Source of the DNA: Candidatus Latescibacterota bacterium
GTDB taxonomy: Bacteria > Latescibacterota > UBA2968 > SICM01
Assembly (NCBI GenBank): GCA_965217865.1
Contig: CBDCJO010000002.1
Coordinates: 5,152,001 to 5,216,000 of the forward strand
Reading direction: 5' to 3'
Length of the DNA stretch: 64,000 bases
A model generated the notes under the pieces. That model was given only the letters and a program-made list of their open reading frames with translations, was not told where the DNA came from and searched no databases. Positions within the stretch are counted from its first letter, which is position 1; each line of letters opens with the position of its first letter. Both the position numbers and the translations under genes were made by a program. Positions 33,958 to 44,923 of the stretch are shown here, in pieces.

Positions 33958-34970
33958 ATGCAAACAATAGAGCGATATGATGCGATCATCATCGGCACGG
34001 GACAATCCGGACCTTCCCTGGCAGCGGACCTGGCCGACGCAGGAAAACGGGTGGCGATTATCGAGCGGGGGCGGTTCGGGGGCACCTGCGTGAATACCGG
34101 CAGCACCTGATCATCATCGGCGGGAGCTATATCGGGTTGGAGTTCGCTCAAATGTATCGGCGATTTGGCAGCGAGGTGACAGTCGTCGACAGGAATTCAC
34201 ACTTGATCGCAAGGGATGATGAAGACATTTCCGATGCGGTCCGCGACATCGTGGAAAACGAGGGGATCAACATCCGGCTAGAGGCTGAATGCATTACGGG
34301 GGAGAATCGGGGAGATCAGGTCCTGGTCAAACTCGATTGCGAGCGTGGGGACAGGGCGGTGGCCGGATCGCATCTCCTGCTTGCGGTTGGGAGGACGCCC
34401 AATACGCAAGACCTGGGGTTGGAAAAGGCGGGGATCGAAGTCGACGAGCGCGGTTACATTGTCGTGGATGACCAGCTCCGCACCAGCGTGCCCGGGGTCT
34501 GGGCGTTGGGCGACTGCAACGGGAAGGGGGCTTTTACCCACACTTCATACAACGATTACGAGATCGTTGCCGCCAATCTGCTCGAGGAAGATCCGCGCCG
34601 TGTGAGCGACCGTATCCTCGCCTATGCCCTGTACATCGACCCGCCGTTGGGACGCGTCGGGATGACGGAAGCCGAGGTCCGTAAGTCCGGGCGCAAAGCC
34701 CTGATCGGGAAAAGGCCGATGACGAAGGTGGCCCGGGCGGTGGAGAAGGGAGAAACACAGGGTTTTATGAAAATCCTGATAGATGCCGAGACCAAGGAGA
34801 TTCTGGGTGCGGCGATACTGGGAATCGGGGGGGACGAGATCATCCATTCGATCCTCGATATCATGTATGCCAGGGCACCATACACGGTGATCCAGCGAGC
34901 CATGCACATCCACCCTACGGTGTCAGAACTGATCCCGACTATGCTGGGCGAGCTCAAACCCCTGGAATAA
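33958..34970 (+). pseudogene. FAD-dependent pyridine nucleotide-disulfide oxidoreductase (RclA/MerA-like) with an internal frameshifting deletion
   Basis: MQTIERYDAIIIGTGQSG..GGTCVNTG is joined directly at about 34100 to HLIIIGGSYIGLEFAQ in another frame; the C-terminus ends HIHPTVSE. Confidence 0.85.
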
Positions 34971-35282
34971 CGCACATCGGGTCCGGAAAACGTGCAACTT
35001 TCAGGATTTCAAAGCGTTTATACTTCAAATCACTCTTGTTGTGAACGATCGCGCAAATGTTGTGCTGAAAATCACACAACCATATAAGTGATTGTTAACA
35101 AAAAAATAACGAATTTAAAGATCTTAAAATTGTGTGATTTAAAACTTTAGGAGAAGATCCACGACTCAGGATGGTCTGGCTTTTCCTTTATGGTTTTTCG
35201 TATAAATAGTATAGTTTTCAAATAGATGAACTCCACCTACTCCTTCTTCTGACGAAATGTCGGAATCCGGCATAGTTTTTCC

Positions 35283-36485
35283 ATTCTGTATTCACTTTCC
35301 AATTATCTCGGGAAGGTGGTGTTCGTCAACTTCATCGGGTGGAGTTGACCGCATTGCATCACGGACGGTCCGCCCGTGGAAAAGAACATCTGGCAGAGAT
35401 TTAAGGATGAGGAGTTCCAGGCCCTGGGCGTCGAGATATGGGATGGGGGGGCCGCAGATGTGAATAGATTTTTCGTTGGGCTTACGAAAACAACTTACCC
35501 CGTCCTGTTAAAGGGAGGCCGCGTTGGGGCCCAATATGGTGTGGATCGTGCCACTTACATGGTAATGGACCAGGAGGGCATCGTTCGTTACCGGTCGGAA
35601 GGGAGACTCGGGCAACGCTACGACGAAGAGACTCTGATTTCAGTTATTCAGATTCTGTTGACCCCGGCGAATACCCCCCCGCGTATCGTCAATCCAATAC
35701 CGGACCAGGGCGGGGTCGGGATCAATACCATCAGGATCGACCTGGAAGGTTTCGTAGAGGACACGGAGGAGGGTCCCGCCAATCTGAACTGGCACGCAGA
35801 TGGGTTCGATCCCGAACTGATCATTGTCGGAGGACAGATGTCTGCAGGTCCACTGAAGTTCACACCCAGGCAGGATGCGCTGGGTCGAAATTTCAACATC
35901 TTGTTGATCGTGACGGACAGCAAGGGGGCCACGGCGGAGCAAGAGATCGCGCTTCGTCGGCTTCCGGCCGTTTTGTCCATCTCATCGGAAAATTTGAACT
36001 TCGGAGATGTGTTTGTGGGTTCCTCCCAGACCCTGAAGTTGAAGGTGTCGAACGAAGCTGAATCCGACGGGGAGGACCTGACTGTCGATCTGGCTTCCGT
36101 CAGTCCGACCTTCAGCGTTCCGGGCTCATCGGTGACGGTTCCTGCGGGAGAGTCCCGGGAGATCTCGATCGTGTATCGGCCGACAGAGGCGATATCATCC
36201 TCCGGAGAGCTGACGTTTTTGACGAACGATCCGGACCGAGAGTCGTTTGGAGTGTCTTTAACGGGGGTGGGATTGACCCCTCTGGATCTCCAGGTGGCCG
36301 TCACGGATTCGGATTTCGACGGGGACGGAAGGATCGACTTCGACGATTTCTTTTTGTTCGCAGGGGCGTTCGGGGGAACGAATCCTCTGTTCGACCTGGA
36401 CAGAAGCGGTCGCGTGGACCTGGACGATTTGTTTATCTTCGCGACTGATTTCGGGAAGATGGCAAAACCAGACGATGGACGATAA
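35283..36485 (+). CDS. Selenoprotein redoxin (UPHC) + Ig-like + ASH/choice-of-anchor D + EF-hand/dockerin-like tail; 5' end truncated or frameshifted
   Basis: In-frame YSLSNYLGKVVFVNFIGWS-TGA(35346-48)-PHC continues into track ORF 35376-36485; paralog of 36845-38182; no clean start or signal peptide. Confidence 0.75.
35360..35378 (+). promoter_or_regulatory. SECIS-like hairpin
   Basis: CACGGACG-GTC-CGCCCGTG starts 11 nt after the UGA. Confidence 0.7.
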
Positions 36486-36844
36486 AACCCTTCCGCTCAT
36501 CCCCACCGGAATACAGAATACAGAAGACAGGAGTCAGAAGAAAACCTTAATTCAAATCAGTCGGCGAGACATGAGAGTTCAGACGTGAGACGTGAAACGG
36601 CAAAAGGCAGTAGCAGGTGGCAGTGGCAGGAATGGCAAAGGCAGGGGTCAGAAGTCGGAGGTCGGGGAAATCGTAGCTTCGACGGAGTTTATCCTGAGCT
36701 AGTCGAAGGGCTCAGGACGTGGCTTTCCCAGAACGGGAAGGGGAAAATGGCCGTTAATTTAGCAAAATGTCAACCACAAGGTCGGAGGAAATCGAAGATC
36801 GACTTTAGACCAGAACGAGTACCGATAAGGGAAAACGGTTCGGT

Positions 36845-38182
36845 ATGAAAAGGGTCATTTGGTTATTCATAGGGCTGGTCTTCTGGTCTGCAGGACCGAA
36901 CGCACCTGCCGTCTCCGCGGTGAGGGTTGGGGAAAACGCTCCGGATTTCACGTTGAAGGGGTTGGATAACAGGAATTATTCCCTGTCCGACTACCGTGGA
37001 AAGGTGGTGTTCGTCAACTTCTTCGGGTGGAACTGACCGCATTGTATAACGGACGGTCCGTCCGTTGAGAATAAAATCTGGCAGCGGTTTAAGGATCAGG
37101 AGTTTCAAGCCATCGGCGTTGATGTGTGGGACGGAAATCCGGATGGCGTAACGAAATTTTTCGTCGGGTTGACCAAGTCGACCTATCCGGTTCTAACCAA
37201 AGGCGGCCGGGTGGGGAGCCAGTACAGATTGGGCAACAATCACTTCATCGTTATCGATCAGGGGGGAGTTGTCCGATGGGTGTCGTCGGGAAGTCTTGGC
37301 AGTCGCTTCAATGAGAATGCCATCGTCTCCACCATCCAGTCTTTGCTTCCTCCTCCGAATACCCCACCAACCATCACCTCGTCGATTCCCGACCAGTCCG
37401 GTTCCGGGACAGAACCCATCGAGATCGACCTGGCTTCATTCGTTTCAGACGAAGAGGACGGCCCTCAAGATCTAATGTGGCGCGCCGAGGGATTCGATCC
37501 GGAGTTGATCGGGGTCACGGAAAATGGAACCGAAGGAGGGATGCTGAGTTTCACACCCAAGCCTGAGGTGCTGGGCCAGGATATTTCGGTTCTGTTGATC
37601 GTATCGGATACTCAGGGGGGTACCGCGGAGCAGTCGATCATCCTTCGGTGGACATTCCTGCCCGCGGTCCTGTCGGTCTCGATGGAGGATCTTAACTTCG
37701 GGAGCGTTTACGTCGGTTCCTCTCGGACTCTAAATTTGATCGTATCGAATGGAGCAGGTCCGGGTGGGGAGGACCTGGAAATTAGACCCTCCTCCGAGAG
37801 TTCGTCCTTCAGTATCGGGGACTCGTCCGTCTCGGTTCCGGCCGGAGAATCCCGGGAGATCTCAATCGTGTACCGGCCGATTGACGAGGTCATGTCTACC
37901 CACGAATTGACGTTCTTGACGAACGATCCCGAACACGAAGTGTTCGGGGTGTCCTTAACGGGATCGGGTCTGCCCCCGCTGGACATCCAGGTTGCTGTTT
38001 CGGATACTGATTTCGATGGGGACGGGAGGATCGATTTCGACGATTTCTTTATGTTCGCGGCGGCCTTCGGAGGAACGGATCCGGTTTTTGATCTGAATAA
38101 GAGCGGCCGTGTGGACTTCGACGATTTTTTTATCTTTGCGACTGACTTTGGAAAAATTGCGAAACCAGACGATGGACCATGA
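36845..38182 (+). CDS. Secreted selenoprotein: AhpC/TSA-TlpA redoxin (U64xxC) + Ig-like + ASH + EF-hand/dockerin-like tail (445 aa)
   Basis: Signal peptide, APDFTL..GKVVFVNFFGWN-TGA(37034-36)-PHC; the frame continues uninterrupted into track ORF 37124-38182. Confidence 0.88.
37048..37066 (+). promoter_or_regulatory. SECIS-like hairpin
   Basis: AACGGACG-GTC-CGTCCGTT perfect stem starting 11 nt after the UGA, with G in the loop. Confidence 0.8.
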
Positions 38183-38350
38183 AAGGCTGTCAAACGTGAG
38201 ACGTGAAACGGTAAAAGGCAGTAGCAGTAGCATGTGGCAGCAACATTCATTTGCCGGGAGAAGTAAAGTGATTTATATTATCGATAACCTCCTTCCCGTT
38301 CCTCATACCCTTGGGATTTCAAAATAGCCGGGTATCAGGAGGGCCGTCAA

Positions 38351-39259
38351 ATGCGGACAATGTTGATCGCTATTTCGACGATTCTGATCGGGTTCTCGGT
38401 TGCACAAGCATCCCCGTGGACATTGCCCAGGGGGGAGTTTTACGCACGGGGAACCGCCCTGGGTTCCCGATCCCGATGGCAGTTCAATAACGACTCGAAC
38501 AGGGTGAAGTTTCTGAATAATGGGCTCAGTCGAATGGTCGGGACTGCCGTCGACGGATCCTTCGGACTTCGTGATGACCTGATGGTCTCGATCGGAGTTC
38601 CCGTCATATTCTACGGTCTCCGGGATGATGATATCCAGGAGGAGGGTTTGAGCTTGGGGGATATCCGAATTTCAAGCCGATATCGTTTGTTTTCCAAAGG
38701 CCTGGTCGTGTCCCTGGAGGCGGGGGTGAAATTTCCCTCGGCCACACAGGTGGATCCTGCACGGGTACAGGTTGGTGAGGGGCAATACGACTTCGACGGC
38801 CTCGTTTCCTTCGGGTTTCTCTGGCCTTCAAAGGAAGGGTATTCAAGTATTGATGCGGGATATCGCATCCGCCGGAGGAGTGAGAAGACTGCGTTTAAAC
38901 CGGGAAATGAATTTATCTACCGGTTCGAAAGCGGATATCAGGCTGGCGACCGGGTTTCAATGCGGTTGAGCCTGGACGGATTCAAGAGTGAGATGGGGAA
39001 TACGGAGGTGTTCGGTGTTGCCGTTCCTACCCGCTTCTCAAATCGAAATCTCCTGGCGGTTGTGCCCGGCATCACACTGGCTGTAAAGGATAAACTTGGC
39101 CTGGATATGAACATCAACATCCCGGTTCTGGGACGGAACTATTATGCCGGAAGTCAGTTTTTTATCGGCCTTTCGTATAACAGCCTCGGGGTCCGGGCGT
39201 CGCTCAATCAATCTACCATCTCCGCTCCCCAGGGAGGATCGTGCTGCAGGATCCAGTAA
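38351..39259 (+). CDS. Outer-membrane beta-barrel 'transporter' (MetA-pathway/COG4313-like) with Cys-Cys C-terminal extension
   Basis: Signal peptide (AQA), alternating amphipathic strands, 'SLGDI', 'GEGQYD' and 'PGNEF' motifs; ends GGSCCRIQ. Confidence 0.65.
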   Translation: MRTMLIAISTILIGFSVAQASPWTLPRGEFYARGTALGSRSRWQFNNDSNRVKFLNNGLSRMVGTAVDGSFGLRDDLMVSIGVPVIFYGLRDDDIQEEGLSLGDIRISSRYRLFSKGLVVSLEAGVKFPSATQVDPARVQVGEGQYDFDGLVSFGFLWPSKEGYSSIDAGYRIRRRSEKTAFKPGNEFIYRFESGYQAGDRVSMRLSLDGFKSEMGNTEVFGVAVPTRFSNRNLLAVVPGITLAVKDKLGLDMNINIPVLGRNYYAGSQFFIGLSYNSLGVRASLNQSTISAPQGGSCCRIQ

Positions 39260-39315: not shown

Positions 39316-39843
39316 GTGAAGTTTCCAAAGGTGATGGTGATTCTTCTTTTAATCGGGATGTTCTCCGTGCTTGGGGCACCTGTCTGGGCAAAGCCGTCGG
39401 TCTCCCGGGGGGATACGCTCACGGATTTCTCACTGAAGAGCATCGACGGCAAGGCCTTCCGACTGAGTGAAACCTATGGCAATAAAAAGGGACTCATCCT
39501 GACGGTGGGTGCGAGCTGGTGAGGGACCTGCCGGGCGGAGGTCTCCATCCTGAAAGATGTTTATAAGAGTTATACTCCAAAGAATATCGAGATGCTGTAT
39601 ATCAGCGTGGAGAGCAGGGAAAAAGCATCCGCTTACGCGAAGAAGAAAGAACTTCCCTATACCGTGCTTGTTGACGAGAATGCGGCGGTTGCGAAGAAAC
39701 TGGGTGTCTCGGCCATCCCCGCCCATTTCATACTCGATGCAGAGGGAAAGGTCCTCTTCAGCAATGTCGGAAAGCTCAAGAACCACGAAAAGTTGCTGAA
39801 CGAGCTGGTGGCGGAATTAGAAGCCGATAAGGAAAAGGGCTAA
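39316..39843 (+). CDS. Exported TlpA/redoxin selenoprotein (U69GTC, 175 aa)
   Basis: GGAGG RBS + GTG, signal peptide, DFSLKSIDGK..GASW-TGA(39520-22)-GTCRAE continues into ORF 39592-39843 (GVSAIP..ILDAEGK). Confidence 0.88.
39523..39545 (+). promoter_or_regulatory. SECIS-like hairpin
   Basis: GGGACCT-G-CC-GGGC-GG-AGGTCTC stem-loop immediately after the UGA. Confidence 0.65.
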
Positions 39844-43713: not shown

Positions 43714-43770
43714 TGGACTTGACCCGGTTTCGTGGATACCTTATTACTTGGCAGAAAGGAGGATGCTACG

Positions 43771-44066
43771 ATGCCGAGGTCACATTCGCCGTATCCACCG
43801 GAGTTCAAGCGGCAGATTGTAGAACTGGTGCGAGCGGGTCGCACGCCCCATGAGTTGTCCCGTGAGTTCGAGCCGTCGGCCCAGGCGATCCGGATCTGGA
43901 TGAGGGCCTCCGCAGTGACGGTCTGATCACCGAGGAGCGGGAGGAGATCAGACGACTGCGCCGCGAGAATAGGCAGTTGCGACAGGAGCGGGAGATCCTT
44001 GCAAAAGCCGCGGCCTGGTTCGCTCGGGAGACCAACTCGGTGCCAGGGGAGTCTACGAGTTCGTGA
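43771..44066 (+). pseudogene. IS3 orfA (HTH) with a small frameshifting deletion near 43890
   Basis: MPRSHSPYPPEFKRQIVELVRAG..AQAIR, then a frame switch to DLDEGLRSDGLITEEREEIRRLRRENRQLRQEREILAKAAAWF. Confidence 0.8.
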
Positions 44067-44923
44067 AAGCCAATCAGGCCTTCTATAAAGTAGCCACGAT
44101 GTGCCGGGTCCTGGAAGTCTCCACCAGTGGGTACTACGCGTGGCTCAAGCGGCCGCTGTCGGCACGAGCGCAGGCCGATGTGGCTCTGACGGAACGGATC
44201 GTGAAGATTCACAAGTGTTCTGATGGCACCTACGGTGTCCCGCGCATATACGAGGAGCTTGTAGCCGAGGGGGAGCGGATCGGTCGCAAGCGCGTTGCGC
44301 GGTTGATGCGTGCTGCAGGCCTGGAGGGCGTAAGTCGTCGCAAACGGCATCGAACCACCTACCGTGATCGCGATGGGCGCGTCGCTGCTGACCTGGTCAA
44401 TCGAGATTTCACGGCTAACGGGCCAGACCAGCTCTGGGTAGCCGACATCACTTACATCAGTACGTGGGCCGGCTTCCTGTATCTCGCGGTCGTTGTGGAC
44501 GCCTGGAGCCGCCGCGTCGTTGGCTGGGCGATGGCGACCCATCTGCGCGCCGAGCTGGTGCTCGAGGCGTTGAATATGGCGCTCTGGCAACGACAGCCGG
44601 AAGCCGTCATCCATCACTCCGACCAGGGATGTCAGTACACCTCCATTGCCTTCGGTCTACGGTGCCGCAAGGCCGGTGTCCGGCCCTCTATGGGCTCCAC
44701 CGGTGACTGCTACGACAACGCGTTATGCGAGAGCTTCTTCGCCACGCTCGAATGCGAACGCCTGGATCGCCGAAACTACCGCACACAGGCCGAAGCCCGG
44801 ATGTCCGTATTTCAATACATCGAGGGCTGGTACAACTCCCATCGGCGACACTCAGCACTCGGATATCTCTCTCCAATGAACTTTGAGCAGACCTCCAGCG
44901 CTGTTGCCCATGAAGCCGAATGA
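44063..44923 (+). CDS. IS3 transposase orfB (DDE integrase core)
   Basis: WVADITY, HHSDQGCQY and DNALCESFF motifs. Confidence 0.95.
   Translation: MKANQAFYKVATMCRVLEVSTSGYYAWLKRPLSARAQADVALTERIVKIHKCSDGTYGVPRIYEELVAEGERIGRKRVARLMRAAGLEGVSRRKRHRTTYRDRDGRVAADLVNRDFTANGPDQLWVADITYISTWAGFLYLAVVVDAWSRRVVGWAMATHLRAELVLEALNMALWQRQPEAVIHHSDQGCQYTSIAFGLRCRKAGVRPSMGSTGDCYDNALCESFFATLECERLDRRNYRTQAEARMSVFQYIEGWYNSHRRHSALGYLSPMNFEQTSSAVAHEAE

Follow-up and report, generated by a model that had tools for sequence, protein, structure and literature searches.

A predicted selenocysteine redoxin with an Ig/ASH stalk and a type II-like dockerin tail is common in one class of Latescibacterota

We report a gene from a Candidatus Latescibacterota genome that encodes a predicted signal peptide, a redoxin domain with a predicted selenocysteine (Sec), a two-domain Ig/ASH stalk and a dockerin-type tail. 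This Sec-redoxin-dockerin protein is real and common in its lineage. From the sequence and the modelled fold, we consider it very probable that the protein combines Sec with a thioredoxin fold. We put close to, but slightly short of, even probability on the complete chain of events that we propose, in which the selenoprotein would be made, exported, docked on a cohesin that carries a type IX secretion (T9SS) signal (CTD), displayed outside the cell and engaged in thiol-disulfide exchange.

Results

One frame encodes a four-domain protein when a single TGA is read through

When TGA is read as U, positions 36845..38182 (+) of the window (the whole 64,000-nt stretch of DNA analysed) form a single 445-aa frame, with its only internal TGA at 37034, corresponding to U64 in the motif NFFGWN-U-PH-C67 (Table 1). 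Reading with table 11 splits 36845-38182 into pieces of 63 and 352 aa, and database entries for close relatives of the protein begin after the UGA; this redoxin family is hidden in databases because gene callers cut at the UGA. Contigs from two sequencing runs keep the TGA, which is therefore not an assembly error: over 36943-37117 the contig from run X1, possibly the source sample, shows 0 differences, and the contig from run X4 spans the TGA region with 8 differences, 0 of which fall in the TGA. The sequencing runs listed as containing this DNA include no RNA run.

Pfam matches to the 445-aa protein were above cut-off for AhpC-TSA (residues 28-145, E 2e-14), Redoxin (28-150) and ASH (281-362, E 2e-10) and below cut-off for Big_9 (172-266, E 0.0015) and EF-hand families (373-428); in the ASH region, PF15780 scored above and NF012200 below cut-off. 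The Ca-binding repeat reads DFDGDGRIDFDDFF at 389-402 and then DLNKSGRVDFDDFF at 416-429. The protein begins with basic residues and is at its most hydrophobic in the N-terminal region, and the signal peptide was assigned from these features and from homologous N-termini. An AlphaFold2 model based on a 56-sequence alignment (mean pLDDT 92.8, pTM 0.61) has four well-resolved domains, namely a thioredoxin fold, a pair of beta-sandwiches and a tail of two loop-helix units with helices at 398-407 and 425-434; single-sequence AlphaFold gave an unusable model (pLDDT 35.6). Foldseek matched the stalk to ciliary central-pair chains. The first-pass annotation of this DNA had proposed the order signal peptide, redoxin, PPPNTPP, Ig, ASH and duplicated Ca loop, which is present in the frame, the Pfam matches and the AlphaFold2 model, and the structure prediction and HMM scans that it had suggested as a check recovered the redoxin, Ig, ASH and dockerin-like parts. 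Its description of the first stalk domain as cadherin/Ig-like held for Ig-like, with cadherin gaining no specific support.

Table 1. Features of the locus, in window coordinates, with the evidence for each assignment.
Feature	Position	Strand	Basis or remark
Sec-redoxin-Ig-ASH-dockerin gene, 445 aa	36845..38182	+	Frame, Pfam, AlphaFold2
Predicted signal peptide, aa 1-25, ending ...AVSA	36845..36919	+	Sequence, hydropathy, homologous N-termini
Thioredoxin-fold redoxin domain (ResA/TlpA/DsbE-like), aa 25-169	36917..37351	+	Pfam, Foldseek, VIA
In-frame TGA, predicted Sec64 of U-P-H-C	37034..37036	+	Cys of CxxC in relatives; class-wide TGA
SECIS-like hairpin, 11-31 nt 3' of UGA	37047..37067	+	Folding, synonymous recoding test
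PPPNTPP linker	37346..37366	+	Sequence
Ig-like beta-sandwich, aa 172-271	37358..37657	+	Weak Big_9; all-beta in model
ASH / choice-of-anchor-D-like Ig domain, aa 274-376	37664..37972	+	PF15780, NF012200, Foldseek
Type II-like dockerin tail, aa 389-436, a twofold repeat of Ca loop + helix	38009..38152	+	PDB profile matches, model, column conservation
Predicted outer-membrane beta-barrel (PF13557), C-terminal Cys-Cys at aa 298-299	38351..39259	+	Pfam
Second predicted selenoprotein, signal peptide + TlpA/ResA-like redoxin, W-U-G-T-C, TGA 39520	39316..39843	+	
Tandem paralog, 65% identical, own TGA 35346 + hairpin	35289..36485	+	Without signal peptide and first ~20 redoxin residues

Selenocysteine is the likely reading of the in-frame UGA

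The host genome has tRNA-Sec, selA, selB and a selD with a TGA of its own. We searched a sample of 151 genomes of the phylum for homologues at a redoxin match threshold of 1e-15 and found the redoxin in 80/151, comprising the host genome, 79/114 others in its class and 0/36 outside the class. By hand count from the resulting table, an in-frame TGA is present in 109/113 of the homologous places listed for this sample, of which the 30 best and two more were inspected directly; the weaker ones could represent different Sec redoxins. At the top loci, the TGA falls on the first Cys of CxxC in all Sec sequences extracted, and relatives outside the class carry Cys at the UGA position.

Bacterial SECIS (bSECIS) elements are hairpins that lie just after the UGA and have a G early in the loop. 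The hairpin of the host gene, with a 9-bp stem and a GUC loop, agrees with both the position and the loop G, and its stability exceeds that of 97% of synonymous recodings; the same hairpin test gave p≤0.05 for 15/23 Sec loci. A pair count on a 17-row alignment mixing two registers detected no stem covariation, a test that was blurred because the family of the host has a longer hairpin register than the other family, and single compensatory changes are visible by eye in the upstream paralog and in locus L126.

These observations argue strongly that UGA 37034 is likely decoded as selenocysteine, with insertion inferred from sequence, and the selenoprotein proposed at first pass is upheld by the sel genes and tRNA-Sec, the hairpin, the class-wide TGA and the Cys of relatives. 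If the UGA were instead a stop, the gene would be broken, as the truncation of one neighbouring copy might suggest; this reading is scarcely credible, since the TGA at the catalytic position is conserved class-wide and answers to Cys in relatives, a hairpin follows it and the genome encodes a full Sec machinery, and we rejected a pseudogene on the same evidence.

The redoxin is ResA/DsbE-like and occurs with alternative C-terminal tags

The nearest folds to the redoxin domain are ResA/DsbE-like, at an rmsd of about 1.9 Å over 136-146 residues: Foldseek superimposed it on ResA at 1.8-2.0 Å, and VIA aligned 139 residues with 3gl3 (Z 20.1, rmsd 1.9). A wide structure search with the whole protein returned matches to this domain. 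ResA, DsbE and TlpA share with it a thioredoxin-like fold with C/UxxC, whereas it is only 24-33% identical to them, has Sec for the first Cys, lacks W-C-x-x-C and belongs to a soluble protein with a multidomain tail. A search of 1.84 billion representatives recovered many Cys proteins of 250-280 aa that share F-F-G-x-x-C-x-x-C and G-x-D-x-W. The active-site context is F-F-G-x-x-U-x-x-C, with Trp before U in 0/23 active sites and a W-C-x-x-C context in 0/23. No full-length NCBIfam model reached cut-off for the 445-aa protein; NF002854, a model for the ResA/TlpA/DsbE subfamily, scored 59 bits (cut-off 170), and NF041054, a ResA-like WAxxUGC selenoprotein model, scored 16.8 bits (cut-off 300).

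With AhpC-TSA as the best Pfam match, AhpE and Bcp structures at Z 18-19 and two database relatives named peroxiredoxin, the enzyme might be taken for a peroxidase, peroxiredoxin or glutathione-peroxidase-like, that clears surface peroxide. We judge this very unlikely, because the motif P-x3-T/S-x-x-U/C (P-x3-T-x-x-C/U in the available part of PMC13188914) is found in 0/23 active sites examined and NCBIfam peroxidase models fall far below cut-off, and a peroxiredoxin identity was rejected accordingly.

Of 144 rows of the redoxin family, 98 have a CTD as C-terminal tag, 10 have a dockerin and 5 have a short W-G-x-x-K tail; the remaining 31 lack a tag or are incomplete. In a quick tree (140 columns; rows L120-L122 ignored, P0103 dropped), CTD, dockerin and short tails are intermixed in one clade of Sec forms with SH-aLRT 96. 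The redoxin proteins with a T9SS type A CTD from Bacteroidota-like and related lineages (P0010, P0053, P0046) belong to the same subfamily, with 33-46% domain identity and a barrel and TlpA neighbourhood alike in type, but they carry Cys and their own CTD where the host protein carries Sec and a dockerin. Scanning named genomes for the redoxin pattern by itself gave mostly distant TlpA-like genes, with L026 as the sole useful hit. In L107, L113, L125, P0038, P0064 and P0103 this redoxin ends in a short [ST]-W-G-x-[IV]-K tail in place of the CTD, which may be a minimal sorting tag of a third kind; the host genome offers no convincing case of this short tail.

The C-terminal tail is a diverged relative of type II dockerins

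The tail is present in 121/121 genomes of the class and in 68 frames of the host genome, where it is C-terminal in 48, near the N-terminus in 13, before a cohesin and CTD in 5 and internal in 2. Against the PDB, a 63-row profile of the tail gave its best match to 2y3n_B, the type II dockerin of B. cellulosolvens Cel48 (E 1.2e-12, aligned over 55/60 positions), with E values of 3-5e-8 for the A. cellulolyticus dockerins 4wi0_B and 4u3s_B and about 1e-4 for calmodulin. It is a duplicated repeat of ~22 aa with conserved Ca ligands at positions 1, 3, 5, 9 and 12, each unit being a loop-helix without an entering helix; a canonical EF-hand sensor was rejected on the missing entering helix and on the lead of dockerins over calmodulin by about 8 orders. 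Position 10 of the repeat is F in 51/63 rows and L in 11/63, and position 20 of repeat 2 is F in 61/63. The cohesin-contacting dockerin residues named in the available text of PMC8063739 (Met17/Phe27/Phe60) align with the conserved Phe of the tail. Pfam Dockerin_1 (PF00404) did not match the tail, and NF041540 reached at best 25.3 bits (cut-off 29) for the tail of the 445-aa protein; with curated dockerin models below cut-off, we regard the tail as a diverged dockerin relative. An EF-hand/dockerin-like tail had been proposed at first pass and is supported by the profile homology to solved type II dockerins and by the Ca-loop repeats.

The dockerins of 2Y3N (B. cellulosolvens) and 4U3S/4WI0 (A. 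cellulolyticus) share with the host tail two Ca loops with D/N at 1, 3, 5, 9 and 12, two helices and hydrophobic positions 10 and 20, whereas the host tail has a shorter linker and Phe-rich helices and belongs to a diderm with T9SS parts, single-cohesin partners and non-cellulolytic cargo. The architecture is not the singular one that the first-pass annotation took it for: stalk plus tail is generic in the lineage (68 frames), the cassette also stands behind an unrelated Temptin-like domain, and the Sec redoxin is found in 79/114 other class genomes. The Temptin_C-like + dockerin gene at C2:5327400-5328083 seems broken, with a stop and without the Ig/ASH part; in other assemblies it is intact, encoding 380 aa (P0008) with the same Ig-ASH-dockerin cassette. 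In locus L185 (G155) another Sec redoxin (W-U-P-V-C) is fused with a repeat domain and an ASH-like domain and has this dockerin tail as well, so the tail carries more than one type of selenoenzyme. In one lineage (L188-L191 and L197, the last in G148), a Q-P-A-R-A-K linker follows the dockerin, and in L197 the CTD then comes directly, with no cohesin.

Single-cohesin CTD proteins are candidate partners for surface docking

Cohesin-like partners, which the first-pass annotation had suggested looking for, were found as nine matches in the host genome, one per protein. Five of the 68 tail frames are dockerin-cohesin-CTD fusions, and C2:5387701-5388450 encodes signal peptide-cohesin-CTD without a dockerin; judged by these layouts, fused and stand-alone forms make up a fusion/fission pattern. 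The cohesin-like profile matches solved cohesins including 3l8q, 2ozn_A, 4u3s_A and 2y3n_A, the last two of which are the partners of dockerins matched by the tail profile. The cohesin of C2:5387701-5388450 was matched in 86/121 class genomes (by family, f2 31/31, f4 22/22, f3 31/65 with weak matches, and f1 1/2), and the 30 best cohesin loci all read signal peptide-cohesin-CTD, one being cut by a contig end. No multi-cohesin scaffoldin was found in the host genome, where each matching protein has one cohesin match, and a cellulosome-type scaffold was therefore rejected.

The host genome encodes several T9SS parts from the component list in the available part of PMC11611037, namely SprA, PorV, a C25+CTD protein that is PorU-like by architecture only, and 20 TIGR04183 CTDs; GldM, GldN and PorP/SprF gave 0 matches there, with controls also silent. 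The 445-aa protein itself has no type A CTD. Since the CTD fills the same slot on relatives and the genome encodes SprA, PorV, a PorU-like protein and cohesin-CTD proteins, docking on a T9SS-exported cohesin is likely, and we give dockerin-cohesin binding moderate confidence. The suggestion of a scaffold-docked enzyme is thus sustained in its docking part, by the CTD on the redoxin of relatives and by the cohesin-CTD proteins, and not in its scaffold part, no multi-cohesin scaffoldin having been found.

One clear stand-alone cohesin-CTD protein and two weaker ones face about 60 tail proteins in the host genome, and G001 (91% complete) has 41 tails with no cohesin match at 1e-6. Median numbers of tails/CTDs are 37.5/11.5 in f2 and 6/41 in f3; over 25 genomes the two counts correlate weakly at rho -0.34 (p 0.10), a value that rests on one family contrast, and the anticorrelation is absent within non-f3 genomes. 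The excess of tails over cohesins and the lack of a match in G001 would suit a different role for the Phe-rich Ca-binding tail, as a signal for export or attachment in its own right, which the translocon would recognise or which would bind to the outer membrane, with cohesins incidental; the tail also replaces the CTD in the same slot and is very hydrophobic for a dockerin. A terminal sorting signal would not be expected right after the signal peptide, where 13/68 frames have the tail, or before cohesin-CTD, as in 5/68, and tail and cohesin match the same solved complexes. We find this role decidedly unlikely.

In the mechanism that we favor, a Sec-containing UxxC oxidoreductase of the thioredoxin fold would be made by UGA decoding and cross the inner membrane by means of its signal peptide. 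Its Ca-loaded dockerin tail would bind the cohesin of a partner with a type IX secretion signal, and this cohesin-CTD partner would tether the enzyme to the cell surface, with the two-domain stalk as a spacer. There the enzyme would act on disulfides of surface proteins or external substrates, reducing or rearranging them. The surface location has moderate confidence, and the first-pass annotation was probably right about display. An enzyme that docks on cohesins could instead stay in the periplasm and proof-read disulfides of dockerin/CTD cargo before export: the protein carries a signal peptide without a CTD, it is closest in fold to the periplasmic ResA/DsbE/CcmG, stand-alone cohesins are few, and the T9SS motor was not found in the host genome (GldM, GldN; controls silent). 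However, 98/144 family rows carry a CTD directly, an indication that the redoxin family acts outside the cell, and carriers of the tail include a peptidase and long ASH stalks, typical of surface proteins. Periplasmic retention is a serious reading but, in our estimate, an unlikely one.

Neighboring genes suggest a possible thiol relay

The C-terminal CC of the downstream barrel is invariant in 13/13 aligned close homologs. The second predicted selenoprotein, beyond the barrel, has a counterpart in G002 with TGA at the same place; it scores 47 bits with NF041054 (cut-off 300) and has the WAxxUGC motif in part. The redoxin-dockerin/barrel order also occurs in G002 (= L244), L243 and L247. In 16/29 family loci, from kindred rather than independent genomes, the redoxin adjoins a DUF6029 barrel and a Cys TlpA within 1.5-kb flanks, and all six visible C-termini of DUF6029 barrels have C-x4-C; the same order of DUF6029 barrel, TlpA and redoxin is found in a Bacteroidetes MAG. 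Neither barrel nor TlpA was present in the flanks examined at 13/29 family loci, nor in those of the third host copy (C2:3522113-3523453). DUF6029 was not found in the host genome, where controls were silent and tblastn with the L026 barrel was also negative.

A relay is suggested by the occurrence of two unrelated barrels, both ending in a Cys pair and both encoded between a TlpA and a gene for a secreted redoxin. The downstream CC-barrel and Sec TlpA may possibly form an electron relay; this relay and any substrate are assigned with weak confidence. Against the relay stand the CC-barrels beside HMA and CopZ-like genes at L215 and L245 and the third host copy, which lacks such neighbors. With DsbD encoded in the host genome, electrons would most likely pass from DsbD to the TlpA-like selenoprotein two genes downstream, then to the Cys-Cys tail of the barrel and on to the redoxin. 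A broader proposal, which we regard as unlikely, is that in this class dozens of dockerin-tailed proteins pass through the T9SS by riding on a small cohesin-CTD carrier, one of them a relay-fed selenoenzyme; its trans-outer-membrane relay, from periplasmic Sec-TlpA through the Cys pair on the beta-barrel tail to the surface Sec-redoxin, would recur widely among T9SS-bearing phyla in the form DUF6029 + TlpA + redoxin-CTD, an unrelated barrel having taken over in the present genome.

Vicinal cysteines at a C-terminus are a known metal-binding device. The barrel ends in such a pair, and at L215 (G120) and L245 a CC-barrel without a host-type redoxin lies beside HMA and CopZ N-terminal-like genes and a TlpA-like gene; the locus might on this account handle thiophilic metals or metalloids, the Sec redoxin reducing Hg, Cu or As species or passing them to the Cys-Cys barrel for outer-membrane passage. 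We give this little probability, given that the 64-kb window has no metal genes at the locus and that the commonest neighbor in the family is a DUF6029 barrel (C-x4-C) with TlpA. Elsewhere in the genome, C2:4474000-4484000 (-) contains, by labels from sequence reading, a second PF13557-like barrel, without CC, beside a Cys TlpA, together with a thioredoxin-domain/glycoside-hydrolase-like protein, genes for cytochrome c and a methyltransferase whose last residues are GGCC.

Comparison with described systems

Selenoproteins of the UxxC redoxin type are known, as are dockerin/cohesin-CTD systems; their combination is apparently undescribed. Table 1 of PMC13188914, within the part available, lists UxxC selenoproteins as 'Prx-like thiol:disulfide oxidoreductase' (PF00578) and 'Redoxin family protein' (PF08534) and has no dockerin-, CTD- or surface-linked selenoprotein family; the host protein has the same Pfam domains and UxxC but differs from those families in its F-F-G-x-x-U-x-x-C context, stalk and dockerin. 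The nearest precedent is the proposal, in the available part of PMC8542988, that dockerin enzymes sit on a cohesin-CTD scaffoldin in Cloacimonadota. The Ca. Stygibacter system described there likewise has signal-peptide enzymes with C-terminal dockerins and a cohesin-CTD protein, but it comprises a 3,755-aa tandem-cohesin scaffoldin and hydrolases, in contrast to a ~250-aa single-cohesin-CTD protein and a selenoenzyme in the host; both systems are predictions. In their available portions, PMC13326102 does not mention the lineage, PMC4454575, on Latescibacteria, does not mention dockerins, and a preprint on giant genes does not cover the lineage. A full-text literature search, supplements apart, found no description of a Sec redoxin combined with a dockerin/cohesin-CTD system, and no functional study of redoxin proteins with a T9SS CTD was found in the literature.

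Known bacterial thioredoxin-fold selenoproteins have been described without a surface-display device, and the present Sec redoxin turned up in about 70% of the genomes sampled from one class. As a single enzyme swaps among three C-terminal tags, it can serve to test whether a dockerin stands in for the T9SS signal by way of a cohesin-CTD carrier. The three genes are a candidate for moving reducing power across the outer membrane, and the proposed relay offers a first hypothesis for the function of DUF6029.

Paralogs and genomic surroundings

The redoxin is present three times in the host genome: besides the gene at 36845-38182 there is a truncated copy in tandem with it, at 35289-36485, and a further one, intact, at C2:3522113-3523453. 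The tandem paralog is likely a 5'-truncated copy; a contig of run X1 covers 34700-36525 with 1 difference. Just upstream of it, at 34137-34970, the translation resembles the C-terminal part of a pyridine nucleotide-disulfide oxidoreductase, the N-terminal half seemingly being absent. In G002 a full-length Cys copy adjoins a stalk-less Sec copy, so stalk length and Sec vary freely, and in another family the stalk resembles two ASH domains at both loci inspected. The 90% cluster of the neighboring barrel from a same-family genome includes a protein of Ca. Handelsmanbacteria, a lineage that GTDB places under Latescibacterota.

The interval 36483-36700 is a repeated intergenic element: BLAST gave 173 pieces of it across the genome, its contig depth is very high, and a partial copy follows the gene at about 38181-38232. 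Translations from 43732-44923 indicate insertion-sequence-like transposase/integrase genes. Two further thioredoxin-fold selenoproteins are predicted in the host genome, one of the W-A-S-W-U-G-C form at C2:4920765-4922093 (+) and one of a deiodinase-like form at C2:1439299-1440207 (-).
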